Positions 15,042-51,602 of a DNA stretch of 64,000 nt are shown piece by piece. Below the pieces are notes generated by a model. The model worked only from the letters and a program-made list of their open reading frames with translations, was not told the DNA's origin and ran no database searches. This stretch comes from Octopus sinensis (lineage: Eukaryota), in the NCBI RefSeq assembly GCF_006345805.1, contig NC_043006.1, forward strand, positions 10,726,001-10,790,000, read 5' to 3'. Position 1 is the first letter of the stretch; every line of letters begins with the position of its first letter. A program made the translations under genes and the position numbers.

Positions 15042-15320
15042 TACATGCCCACGGGCATATGGTGTATTGGTCAAGAGCGCGGGCTACTAACTCCAAGATT
15101 CCGAGTTCGATTCCAAGCAGTGGCCAGAATTATTATAACAATAATAACATCGAAAAATACCTTAGGAATGAGAACCCAGGTTCGAAATTTCCCCAAGACG
15201 CTTGATGAAGGCTGGAGGGTATATCAGCCGAAATGTTGTGTTAACAACAAACAAGATGAAAAGAAATATCTGTCAAATGTAAATAATGTACCCAATTCCT
15301 CATCTCTTAAATATAGAATA
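15042..15320 (+). mobile_element. tRNA-like module plus hammerhead (Penelope 3' terminus, family P2)
   Basis: A-box at ~15060, B-box gagttcgattcc at 15103-15114; HHR acgc-TTGATGA-a-GGCTG...CAGCC-GAAA-tg-TT-gtgt at 15198-15241; first 60 bp match 51538-51602. Confidence 0.7.
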
Positions 15321-16840
15321 AATATAGAATAAAGAATAAATCTTGGAGTCGATTTGTCCGACTAAAGGCTGTGCTCCAGCATGGTAGCAGTCAAATAACT
15401 GAAACAAGGAAAAGAATAAAAAAGAAGACATATAATATACATATGTATATGTGTATATGTTTATCTGTCTATACATACATATACACACACATTCATTTAT
15501 ATATATATATATATATATATATATATATATATATAATATATATATATATATATATATGTGTGTGTGTGTGTGTGTGTGTGTATACATATGTGTGTGCGTG
15601 TGTGTATGTCAATTCACTTATACTAATAAGAATTATACACAGTAGCATTTGTAACGACTTACGCATCTAAACAAACATTACCACGTACGGAACATCATGA
15701 ATAGACACATTTACGTCTACTGATAAGTCTAATATACATATATCTCCATACACCTATCGATAATAAATACTATATTCTTTATTGCACTTTTATATACTCG
15801 TACTGTCTCTTAAAATCAGCGCAATCATTTCAAATGCTATATATATATATAAAACATACCATGTACTAAGAGCATATAAACCTGTCTAAGCCTATAAAAT
15901 AATGTCTGTCAAGAGAGAAGATTTGAAGAAATTCTTGCGTCGAATTCACCACCTGTTTATCATTATTTAAGAACTCAATTCTAACCGATTACTGAAGTGT
16001 ATGTCAGATTAAATACAACAGATCCCGTTTTTATGATACAATTGATTTTGTAGTTTTTGAATAATACAGAAACTAGAAATATATTCAGTCACACACACAC
16101 ACAACACACACACACACACACACACACACACACAACACAAACACAAACACACATACACATACGCATGGCACAATAGTTAGAAATTCGCGTTGCAACTACG
16201 TGATTTCGGGTTCAGCCCCATCCCACGGTGCTTGGAACATTGAAGACTGCTTTAATGCAAGAAAGTATACTAGTCCCTTAATATTTTATATTCAATGTTT
16301 CATCTATTCACTAAGACAATCAATACTTCATTTCATTTTACTATATATATATTATTTATACTATATATTCTATATTCTACATTAATATTATAAAGAATAT
16401 AAATAAAACATAAAAAACAGACATAATTGGAATTTCTTTCAATAATATATATCCCTCTATACACTATCATCCAAACCCCTTTATACATATATATACATAT
16501 ATATATATATATATATATATATATAATATATATATATATATATATATATATATATATATATATATATATATATACATATATACCATGGACTCTCCCGTCG
16601 TAGAAGACATGAGTTTTTGGCAATTTCTAGCCGAAAACCATAACGATGATTTGTTTATAGTGATCAAATGTTTGTGTACACTTAAGCTCACTCTCTCTAT
16701 CAAATCGACATTGCCTGCTTTGCTGAAGAACACAACTCAACGCCTGGTCTGGGGATGGAACCCATAATCTCGCAATCGTGGGTGAAACGGCCCGAGCCAC
16801 GAAGCCATGTACTTCATATGTATATATATACATATATATA

Positions 16841-17075
16841 TATGCTTTATTTAAAAGCAGCAGAAAATTCAACAAAACCTATTGCTCTGAGTTTCACGTT
16901 CCCGTTCGTCGGACAGTTTTTCTAGCAGAAACTGTCCGGTGAACGGGAACGTGAAACTCAGAGTAACAGGTTTTGTTGATTTTCTGCTGCTTTTAAATAA
17001 AGCATATTACTCTACCCCTGGTATCTGAGTACTCTTTTTTCACCTTGTTTCACATTTATGTGTTTACTCCGGTAT
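16841..17075. mobile_element. Fold-back mini-element with two outward-reading hammerheads
   Basis: Arms 16841-16920 / 16929-17006; consensus ctgt-CCGAYGA-ACGggaaCGT-GAAA-CTCaGAG-TA-acag; (TA)n flanks. Confidence 0.88.
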
Positions 17076-17494
17076 ATATTATATATTATATATATATATA
17101 TATATATAATATATATATAATATATATATATGTATATATATATATATATACATATATATTATATAAACATACATACATATGCATACATACATATATATAT
17201 ATATATATACACATATATATATATATATATATATGCATGTATGTATACACACACACGCACATATATATACACATACATACATACATGCATAAATATATAT
17301 GTATGTATGTATGTATGTATATGCAGATATACACACACTCCCAAAACGTCCATATAGATATGTACTGTTATCAGTTATCATCGTCACGGGCTGCTTGTCG
17401 CGTCCTATAATTTCAATTTCCATCTGAATGAACGTTTCCCCCAAAGGAACAACTCAATCAGATGCCAGAAGACATTGTAACGGTTGGCGAAGTG

Positions 17495-17650
17495 TATTGG
17501 TGGCGGTGATGGTGGGGTGGTGGTGGTGTTATTGCTGTTGTCGTTATTGTTGTTGCTGTTGTTGTTATTGTTGTTGTTGTTGTTGTTGTTGGTGGTGGTG
17601 GTGGTGGTCCTGGTGCTGGTGGTGATATTGATTGTTGCTGTTGTTGGTGT
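17495..17650. repeat. (TGG)n/(TTG)n microsatellite
   Basis: Directly visible. Confidence 0.95.
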
Positions 17651-48325: not shown

Positions 48326-50214
48326 ATTAATTATATATATATATATATATAATATATATATATATATATATATATATATATATTATATATATATATATAT
48401 ATATACACATATATGTATATATATATACACGCACGCACACAGACACACACACACACATATATATATATATACACATATGTGTGCGTGTGTGTATAATATA
48501 CATAGAGAGTAATATTCTAGCACAAACGCACTCATATACACTTACATTCAAACACACATATATACATGTACATAGATAGGTTTGCATATTTTTGTTCATG
48601 TGTTCATGTGTTTGTTTGTATACATATATGTATATATGTATGTATAGATAGATAGATAGAGAGAGAGAGATAAATAAATAGATAGATAGATAGATAGATA
48701 TAATGCAGATAAGTAACAAGGATGTCCAGGTATCAATGATTTTACTGCCGTTTTAAGCGGTTCCACTTAATCGATCAATGAAAACATTACATCAATTTGA
48801 AAGAAGTCTCTCTTCTCAGGAGTGGATGACCATATAGATTTCCAACAGTAAGGATAAACTATTTTTAGCAAATTTATATTAGAACTATAAACCAAAATCA
48901 CTACATTTTGGACAGAATGAATTGAGAGTATAATGCATACCTTATTAAGCCTACTATGACTTAGAGAACAGTAAAGGAAAATAGTGAGTGTCAAGATATA
49001 GGAGTGGTGACGTAGTATATATATATTTATTTTCATTTTTATTTATAAGACTTTTATGCAGCACGTAGTCTACATCCATTTAGAATTAAATTCACTGGGA
49101 GTTGTCAGCTATGTTCTAATCCAGCGTGATAAATTAATTGCTGTCAGACAACCTCCCAAGCCCTTATTTTATTGGGACCATATATCTAGCTTTATCTACA
49201 TAAAAGGATATATCTCAGAGCTGCATTTGTGTAGGTGTGTGTGTGTGTGTGTGTGTGTGTGTGTGTGTGTGTGTGTGTGTGTGTGTGAGTAACGAGAAGC
49301 GAAATTTGTAAAATCGTCTCCACGAATTAAACCTCGTGTTTACTTTAAACTGTACAACCGTACTTATCAGAAAACCTATAATGATATAAACTATGATTCC
49401 TAATACCAGTGTCTTAGCGGGAAACTGTGATAATGTGATAATATTGAAGTATGATATATATATATATATATATAGAATCCACCGACAGTGTTATAGATGA
49501 GATTGTTTGGTTATGATATCCTTACTTAATGATATAAATGATAATTACTCTTGTCTTAATCTAAGATGTATATACCCAAGAGGTGTATACTTCTTAGATT
49601 AAGAAACTAATAAAATAATGTCAGTATATAAAGGTAGATAGATAGACAAATCGATAGTTATATAGATAGAGAGACAGACAGGTAGGGAAACATATGTTAA
49701 CATAAAGATGAAGATCAGTGAAAAACAGAATACCTATGCTGAACACTATTGAGAAATCTGCAGTTATCCTATCCAGATTACAAGTTCAGGTTTGTAATTG
49801 TAATTATTGGGGCCCTGGGATATGTAACATTGCCTAAATACCTATCTTAAGAAATTAGGTTTCTCAAAACCAGAAGAGAAAGCTAATTCGAATACTACAG
49901 ATCCCATCCATCACTGGAACTGAAAGAATTTGTAAAACTTTCCAGAAGTTTATCATTTAAGATATATGAGCATATCTAGATATGTAACTACATACATAAA
50001 ACATGCAAATCTGCATATACATACATACATATAAAAATACCCTGCTTTTATAATGATGGAATCTTTGATCTAGGTTAGAAACCGGTTCTTTCTCTATTGG
50101 CAAGAAATCTCGAAATAAATTGAAGAAAAGACATACATACAGGCATACATACATACATACATACATACATACATACATACATACATACATACATACATAC
50201 ATACATACATAAGG

Positions 50215-50595
50215 CATATGCGTGGCTGAGTGGTAAGAAGCTTACTTAAAAACTCACGGTTCCGGTTTCAGTCCCACTGCGTAGTATCTTGGGCAAGTGT
50301 TTTCTACTATTGCCTCGAGTCTACCAAAGCCTTGTGAGTGATATGTATATATGCATGTATGTATGAGTGTGTATGTGTGTGTATGTGTATGTATGTCTGT
50401 ATTTGTCCCTCCATTATCGCTTGACAACCGGTGTTGATGTATTTACGTTCCCGTAAGTTAACGGTTCGGCAAACGGAACGATAAAATAAGTACTAGGCTT
50501 TAAAAAGAAATAAGTCCTTTGGTCGATCTGTTTGACTAAAACCCTGCCATGCGCTACTCCAGCCAAAGGACTGGACCAAATATAAGAATAAAATA
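50215..50595 (+). mobile_element. SINE family B (diverged)
   Basis: Head and tail homology. Confidence 0.8.
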
Positions 50596-51174
50596 ATGTG
50601 TGTGCCTGTGTATGTGTATGTGTGTGTGCGTGCGTGTGTGTGTAAACGTGGAGAGAGAGAGAGCAAGGAAGGAAGGAAGGAAGGTAACCGTCGGAAAACA
50701 AGCAGAAGATACAGTAGATATCAGGAGAAAAATGTAAAGAACGGAAGAAAGAAATAGAGAAATAGAAAGGAAAATGCCACCATCTTTGGCCTGGAGTAAT
50801 TGACAAATTGCATGTCTACGTGTTGTGCTTTTGTGTGAACAGCAGGCACAGAGTGAGGACATATTGGTCCAGAATAGATCAGCAGCAGATTATCGACATT
50901 AGGATAAAACTGTGATATGCAAACATGGCGACGATATTATAGCATCACGCAAAATCCAAATTTATGCTACACTGCAGGCGTTCTTGTAACTAAGTGTTGT
51001 AAAATGACGCTTATCTGATCAGGGGTCTGTGGTAATGTGTGAATTGAGTTTGTAATATTGTGTCAAGTAATTTTATGAATCAAGTAATTTTATATGTAGT
51101 TGGTTATCTGCTCTAATGCAAAAATATCTATTTTATTCAGTCCTATATTTAATATATATGTAAGTATTTAATAT

Positions 51175-51602
51175 AGTAATACAACACTTCGCAAATATCT
51201 CCTTCGAGTAAAACCACCAATAGAAGAGAATATGACCAAAGACTGCGTGTACTCCATCCCATGCAGCTGTGGTAGGTTATACAAAGGCGAAACATGCCGC
51301 CCGCTCAAAATAAGATTAGAATCGGGTATAGCTGATCAGGTGTGGAAAAATGGAGACTGCCTCCCCCTGTAGGATGAAGTTAAAATAATAGATAGAGAAC
51401 ACAATTGAAAAATACGAAACTTAAAGAAGCAGTATATATGATAGGACACAACAACTTCCTAAGCAGACCGAGTGCAGATATGAGCTGATATATGGGAACC
51501 GCTATATTAGATTTATAAGCCCTAAAATTCACTCCATACTTGCCCCACGAACATATGGCGTAGTGGTTAAGAGCGTGGGCTACTAACCTCAAGATTCCGA
51601 GT
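51175..51602 (+). mobile_element. Penelope-like element 3' fragment: GIY-YIG endonuclease pseudogene followed by a tRNA-like module
   Basis: Frame from 51175 reads ...KDCVYSIPCSCGRLYKGETCRPLKIRLE..SGIADQVW..KIIDRE, with stops; A-box tggcgtagtgg at 51556-51566. Confidence 0.85.

Follow-up and report, generated by a model that had tools for sequence, protein, structure and literature searches.

We analysed a window of 64,000 nucleotides of the 2.72-Gb genome of Octopus sinensis (contig NC_043006.1, positions 10,726,001 to 10,790,000 of the forward strand), in which two loci, at about 15 kb and 51 kb, hold parts of what is, judged from its sequence, a decayed, high-copy Penelope/Poseidon-type retrotransposon with a pseudo-long terminal repeat (pLTR) of ~275 nt. 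The 15 kb locus is a complete copy of this ~275-nt unit on the plus strand, consisting of a leader, a tRNA-like head, an AAT tract, a hammerhead ribozyme (HHR), and a tail; unit positions are numbered from the T at window position 15046. The 7-nt leader (15046..15052) includes unit position 1 and the likely transcription start region, with 5′ ends of copies peaking at unit 1 and 8, and is followed by a tRNA-Arg-like head (15053..15125) in which a relic of the anticodon arm lies between an A box (15060-15070, differing at two positions from the majority of the family) and a B box (15103-15114). An (AAT)n tract of variable length (15128..15149) lies within the 5′ leader of an open reading frame (ORF) with its ATG at 15168, and the first 50 codons of this frame (15168..15317), which match family residues 1-50 at 90%, overlap both the hammerhead and the tail. 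The minimal type I hammerhead occupies 15197..15242, with a predicted cut after 15237, and is probably inactive, as two core positions, C3 and the stem III C, are both changed to T. The tail (15243..15318) holds two clusters of 3′ ends (unit ~241-248 and 269-283) that are likely reverse-transcription start sites. Adjoining the 5′ end, 13 nt on the minus strand (15034..15046) may be an inverted remnant of the element tail, though a match this short could arise by chance.

The 51 kb locus, also on the plus strand, carries the decayed 3′ end of the ORF (51163..51518), a GIY-YIG-type endonuclease (EN) with stops and deletions that ends at the family stop codon (51516-51518). A 30-nt spacer and leader (51519..51548; 29 nt in the family majority) then leads to a tRNA-like head (51549..51602) with an A box at 51556-51566, which is broken off inside the B box. 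The stretch 51163-51602 is 82% identical to the family ORF end plus head, and the translation of 51175-51482 matches family-protein residues 703-818 at 79-82%. Upstream of this second copy, a possible inverted tail remnant lies on the minus strand at 51138..51152 (14/15 match, again within reach of chance). A preliminary description of this DNA had proposed that a GIY-YIG pseudogene at 51175-51602 runs into sequence that is also present at 15042, and this is confirmed: 15048-15106 and 51544-51602 are 86% identical over 59 nt (E ~1e-14), including bases 5′ of the tRNA-like part. The hammerhead that it placed at 15198-15241 is likewise present, with the slightly wider extent given above.

By overlapping the two loci, the same description had arrived at the order EN, tRNA-like head, HHR, element end, and genome-wide searches place this linkage in the family itself. 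When the EN alone was used as anchor, 24 of 30 loci continued into the tRNA-like head and 17 ran beyond the HHR, with two near-duplicate pairs among them; the six loci without a head stop at or before the ORF end, and three of these are copies of one locus. The tRNA-like unit does not occur mainly without Penelope sequence, since 22/30 loci anchored by the head alone run through the HHR to the tail, and the rest mostly enter the AAT tract or show internal deletions. The part of the proposed order that did not stand is the element end as the only context of the unit. One reverse transcriptase (RT)-EN ORF is flanked on both sides by this unit, with its head, AAT tract, start codon, hammerhead, and tail, and 8/30 long copies have the unit, or its 3′ portion, immediately before the ORF. 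In the majority sequence, a single 835-codon frame runs from an ATG at unit 119 through the hammerhead and tail to a stop 29 nt before the next head. Because the unit also precedes the ORF and the ORF starts inside it, the unit is the pLTR of a coding element, and the suggestion of a tRNA-derived head inside the pLTR is borne out. Across the genome, the exact hammerhead motif occurs 2519 times, the head motif 1770 times, and the ORF-end motif 934 times. Scaling by the rates of exact matching leads to very rough estimates of ~21,000 hammerhead, ~13,000 head, and ~2,600 ORF/EN end copies. Copies diverge by ~5-6% from the majority sequence, and no young copy was seen among the family copies examined.

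Database proteins P0127 and P0015 share 72% and 56% identity, respectively, with the product of the 835-codon ORF, and the N-terminus of P0015 has the hammerhead-encoded stretch TPD...KRCVNN in common with it. The RT domain of the ORF product matches Pfam RVT_1. The family endonuclease region has no direct match to Pfam GIY-YIG and is assigned to the GIY-YIG type by homology to a relative that does (26/69 identical, E 3e-12); YIG is changed to Y[KTR]G in 12/12 scorable close relatives, and the family has YKG. We found a CCHH motif, VYSIPCSCGRLYKGET, with downstream EH and DH in natural frames, and neither a cysteine cluster nor an extra zinc finger in the RT-EN linker in the natural frames of the family. 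Penelope/Poseidon elements are described as having two cysteines between GIY and YIG and no additional linker zinc finger (PMC8557442). The element also has the single ORF of this group, with RT followed by a C-terminal GIY-YIG endonuclease (the latter by homology), and its pLTRs, tandem and inverted insertions, and 30-40 nt tail. An adjoining inverted, back-to-back piece was present in 53/90 HHR-anchored segments, and the 3′ ends of copies fall into two clusters within the tail, at ~247 and 272-283; together with the lack of a linker zinc finger, these features fit Penelope/Poseidon. A tree built without named reference elements groups the family with its close database relatives, apart from a control Penelope-like element (PLE).

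Among these relatives, proteins P0001-P0023, P0127, P0145, and P0170 form a Poseidon-like subclade with YKG, YTG, or YRG in place of YIG, and one of its clusters has members from the barnacle Amphibalanus amphitrite, which hints at wide spread or horizontal transfer. The close relatives (52-75% identity) were compared as proteins only. At the DNA level, none of 80 metagenome loci had an A/B box pair within 700 nt after the ORF match, all of them being distant (29-45% to P0127) and many too short for such a pair to be visible, and no relatives were found in viral contigs. Several metagenome PLE fragments (L338, L334, L293, and L294) have no TTTT and low TT content; two of them, L334 and L338, rank with the nearest relatives that we found at the DNA level.

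The head aligns from base 1 with the host tRNA-Arg(ACG), with 49/68 columns identical. The search motif for tRNA-Arg(ACG) was built from the head itself; the first 45 nt of the head, which lie outside this motif, beat 5000/5000 shuffles on their own. Within the element, a profile of host tRNA genes matched only the two terminal copies of the head. In a comparison limited to 10 tRNA types, Arg(ACG) is the candidate donor; Arg(TCT) was at first the best among 28 genes and was then displaced by Arg(ACG). ARAGORN at default settings called no tRNA in the head, and its calls at relaxed settings were noise. tRNA-finding programs commonly miss the heads of short interspersed elements (SINEs). Rfam likewise gave no tRNA or hammerhead match at useful thresholds, and both parts were recognised by alignment instead of library matches. 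tRNA-derived SINEs are characterised by a tRNA-related 5′ head that contains A and B boxes, and the unit has such a head. The spacer between stop codon and head was considered as an inverted copy of the head and set aside as borderline (259/5000 shuffles). A second B-box-like stretch lies in the ORF start at 15176-15186 (unit 127-137), where 11 nt are identical to the start of the tRNA-Arg(ACG) T arm, with no A box upstream of it; in one copy (L352), the sequence between the two similar motifs has been deleted. Elsewhere in the genome, tRNA-Arg(ACG) genes form a long tandem array that repeats every ~206 bp (G000:C2:3121924-3147664, L418-L430), and relaxed ARAGORN made three tRNA-Ser(GCT)-like calls at 473-bp spacing in L087:81-1109.

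The position at which copies begin was examined in 86 loci picked by the hammerhead motif alone (88 minus two duplicates), of which 57 contributed 72 segments reaching position 60. Nearly half of these segments (33/72) end at unit -3..12, where ~3 were expected from the flanking rate (P 7e-23), and the rate of 5′ ends there was 0.066 per nt versus ~0.006 on either side; 11/72 pass -24 into the ORF. Counted by position in a further sample of copies, the 5′ ends peak at unit 1 and 8, that is, 14 and 7 nt before the A box, with 11 copies at position 8, the first base of the tRNA, 10 at position 1, and 19 at positions 3-6. Head-anchored loci behave similarly, with 20/30 starting at unit 0-12 and six exactly at the first tRNA base, as the preliminary description had anticipated in asking whether many copies start at the tRNA 5′ end. 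Four long copies have the head in their 5′ unit; three of them start at it, and the fourth continues into a preceding tandem copy. At 3/30 junction loci, an ORF fragment is joined straight onto the start of the head, as template jumps at the 5′ end of an RNA would produce, in a 5′-junction sample that is confounded by a third 3′ end at 282-283.

We found zero TTTT, the terminator of RNA polymerase III (Pol III), on the sense strand of the 2648-nt monomer, where base content predicts 5.5. Decayed copies have 0.5-0.8 TTTT per kb, a second PLE family in the genome with equal T content has 8-9 per 2.3-2.5-kb ORF, and 80 related metagenome loci average 3.8 per kb, with only 2/41 long ones lacking any. 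In 44/50 flanks of host tRNA genes, a run of at least four T follows the gene, and in 29/50 the run is exactly T4, many of these genes being from one array. The absence of TTTT is modest support for Pol III and is not diagnostic. The unit has no matches to CCAAT, TATA, or splice-donor motifs; the control PLE family carries three CCAAT and four CRE-like motifs after its ORF. That control family (L211-L240, e.g. L221 and L231) is younger, with a cysteine-rich RT-EN linker and several open 781-codon frames. Counts of poly(A) signals did not separate the two PLE families, and low phenylalanine, tried as a subclade-wide sign of TTTT avoidance, was not significant (p 0.21).

The preliminary description had further suggested that the ribozyme-bearing terminus forms a SINE-like unit dependent on Penelope. 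Its independence as a lineage was not supported: at 18 variable sites, the alleles of 81 short and 62 ORF-linked copies did not differ (smallest p 0.09), and divergence was similar (5.0% for short and 5.9% for ORF-linked copies). The unit also forms the 5′ end of the coding element. Target-site duplications, which a separately inserted tRNA-like unit might have carried, showed no excess (5/71 versus 4.35 in shuffled pairs). Since the two classes share variants at equal frequencies, have diverged to a similar degree, and lack an excess of target-site duplications, short and ORF-linked copies are most simply read as having come from the same masters. An independent SINE subfamily with its own master copies was rejected for want of diagnostic alleles in the 81 + 62 copies sampled of ~13,000. 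Two other classes were also set aside. Non-LTR retrozymes form head-to-tail arrays, and the HHR-anchored loci were single or inverted copies, with one two-copy direct repeat in L008/L014; membership in TRIMp3, a class of non-coding elements with Pol III promoters, two true LTRs, a PBS, and a PPT, is ruled out by the encoded RT and EN and by the pLTRs.

Stems I and II of the hammerhead pair in 8/8 aligned copies, and the core is intact in 125/274 family copies; no covariation was seen in the aligned copies. A minimal hammerhead in a pLTR fits the min-HHR description of PMC4209133, with cleavage here being a prediction. The start codon lies 70 nt upstream of the predicted cut, so cutting would remove it from the ORF unless unit-length RNA circularises, and circular intermediates have been proposed for PLEs (PMC4209133). 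For PAc, a Poseidon element of Anolis carolinensis, reverse transcription starts internally at two early-ORF sites, creating the tail, the ORF starts within the hammerhead, and no hammerhead cleavage was required in vitro (PMC11167929).

We consider it rather likely, from the placement of the head and of the copy ends, that the tRNA-Arg-derived head served as an internal Pol III promoter for the whole Penelope/Poseidon-type element, and a promoter of an autonomous element is a stronger reading of the head than a separate SINE-like unit. Pol III would initiate ~7-14 nt before the A box and, with no TTTT to stop it, could read through tandem master copies. The element protein would then start reverse transcription internally in a tail, as the anole element does in vitro. 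Initiation in the first pLTR of the RNA would yield a short SINE-like copy ending at the RNA 5′ end, and initiation in a later pLTR would yield an ORF-bearing, 5′-truncated copy. We offer more tentatively, as something possible and short of probable, that the whole life cycle including the mRNA ran on Pol III, with a captured tRNA promoter, a 2.6-kb ORF purged of terminators, and cap-free translation. Translation is the speculative step: uncapped or ribozyme-circularised RNA might be one route, and occasional read-through by RNA polymerase II (Pol II) another. In the circular route, the hammerheads of two successive pLTRs would be cut and the ends ligated, which would bring the start codon back in line with the remainder of the ORF.

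Several observations weigh against a Pol III promoter in the head. No cloverleaf is predicted for the head, the T stem of which is broken, and its folding is no better than that of shuffles (z ~+0.7 to +0.9). The A and B boxes are no better conserved among copies than adjacent bases, which is expected after neutral decay and is therefore uninformative. Few full-length copies reach the head (4 + 2 more), and a small hairpin at unit 1-12 could stall the RT and mimic a start. The statistics for the absence of TTTT are modest (P 0.035 by dinucleotides, 0.2 by trinucleotides, and 0.024-0.045 by codon recoding), and GGGG is likewise absent from the monomer. Four long interspersed element (LINE) ORF pieces that we take to be R4/Dong-like (L084, L241, L002, and L242) also have only one TTTT in 3.8 kb; similar LINE pieces L010 and L194 are not TTTT-depleted. 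Pol III RNA carries no cap, and a cap is normally required for translation. Autonomous elements have also been argued to need Pol II (Kojima 2024, PMC10886601).

The need for a cap would be met if Pol III made only the short pLTR RNAs or templates and the protein came from Pol II read-through, either from host genes or from an unseen promoter. The short copies would then be a semi-dependent SINE-like class, near the idea of the preliminary description, and they do exceed ORF-bearing copies by ~5 to 1 (a rough 13,000 versus 2,600); the schistosome repeat SM-alpha also pairs a Pol III promoter with a hammerhead (PMC6765202). We nevertheless find this division of labour unlikely, as it leaves the TTTT-free ORF unexplained unless long templates were also Pol III products, and the short copies have no SINE-specific alleles. 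By analogy, solo copies would moreover be poor templates because they end 129-165 nt after the ATG, and PAc needed 172 nt of its ORF (PMC11167929).

Less probable still, the head could be a mere passenger, left from an old tRNA or SINE and fixed in the pLTR of an ordinary Pol II-driven element, with the pile-up of 5′ ends arising from a Pol II start at the same place or from RT stalling at the hairpin, and with a compositional lack of TTTT. Penelope and Chlamys-3 have Pol II-type promoters with pLTR introns (PMC8557442), and the hairpin, the modest TTTT statistics, and the TTTT-poor LINE pieces all agree with such a passenger. The unit, however, has no intron or Pol II motifs, and the two peaks of 5′ ends correspond to the far side and middle of the hairpin, not to its base. 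These ends also coincide with the first base of the tRNA and lie at what we take to be a SINE-like distance from the A box. That coincidence could instead reflect RNase P cutting longer transcripts at the first tRNA base and so defining the template 5′ end, since position 8 is the commonest single 5′ end in both samples and an acceptor-like helix survives in one fold. With nearly as many ends at position 1, and more at 3-6, all upstream of such a cut, and with a broken T stem and no predicted cloverleaf, we regard processing as very improbable.

Comparison with known systems sets out what the internal Pol III promoter would add. Like PAc, the octopus element has one ORF with RT then C-terminal GIY-YIG, a pLTR at both ends, an ORF that begins in the hammerhead region, two 3′-end clusters forming a tail, and tandem and inverted insertions (PMC11167929). 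Unlike PAc, it has a pLTR that opens, 29 nt past the stop codon, with a tRNA-derived head bearing A and B boxes; its sense strand is TTTT-free, no intron was seen, and it has YKG instead of YIG. The characterised PLE promoters, those of Penelope and Chlamys-3, overlap an intron (PMC8557442), and none was seen in the octopus unit. The Schistosoma repeats SM-alpha and Sj-alpha resemble the unit in being short and in carrying a type I hammerhead downstream of a promoter of Pol III type. SM-alpha, for which the available text names no coding parent, is described as non-coding and is often arranged in tandem (PMC6765202); the octopus unit is instead a terminal repeat belonging to a coding element, and its hammerhead, a minimal one, lies within the ORF. 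TRIMp3 elements (Cassandra, Helenus, and Ajax) share a small-RNA-derived Pol III promoter in a terminal repeat that is regenerated at each transposition, but all are non-autonomous LTR elements, and the octopus element is a PLE encoding its own RT and endonuclease (PMC10886601). Animal non-LTR retrozymes are similarly short, hammerhead-bearing, pLTR-derived non-coding copies moved by PLE machinery, which form head-to-tail arrays and for which the available text gives no tRNA-derived promoter (bioRxiv 10.64898/2026.07.22.740005; PMC7229834). The octopus short copies, in contrast, are mostly single or back-to-back and form no separate lineage. Octopus SINEs of tRNA-Arg origin, OK, OR1, and OR2, were reportedly described by Ohshima and Okada in 1994; set beside the element by description only, they too have tRNA-derived heads, and the short unit may already figure in catalogues as a SINE, its connection to Penelope unnoticed. 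Already known, then, are a Pol III promoter with a hammerhead in schistosome repeats (PMC6765202), tRNA or 5S promoters inside the terminal repeats of non-coding TRIMp3 elements (PMC10886601), and non-autonomous retrozymes derived from pLTRs (bioRxiv 10.64898/2026.07.22.740005). We found no coding PLE with a tRNA-derived head in the literature, in a search that lay outside repeat databases, subscription journals, and supplements.

Other features of the window include an abundant unrelated repeat, partly in ~184-bp tandem units (2122-2685, 9281-9709, 31011-31354, 51673-51902, and others), and a further repeat family at 15313-15424, 6951, 27832, 28899, and 41422. Near-perfect inverted repeats form hairpins at 24539-24652, 32191-32449, and 35745-35884, all below threshold against microRNA models. 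An assembly gap of 100 N (20169-20268) adjoins a repeat of window 47-240.

Autonomous retrotransposons are usually assigned to Pol II, and only non-coding SINEs and TRIMp3 elements to Pol III (PMC10886601). Even if the anatomy alone holds, ~13,000 tRNA-headed repeats in this genome are liable to be misannotated as SINEs. If the promoter reading is true, a coding Penelope with a tRNA promoter would break the division between Pol II and Pol III, and cap-independent or circular-RNA translation of PLEs would become testable. It would also give a concrete job to the long-unexplained hammerhead of the pLTR. Repeats with tRNA heads that are taken for SINEs could then be by-products of a coding element, which would be a new route to the birth of SINEs.

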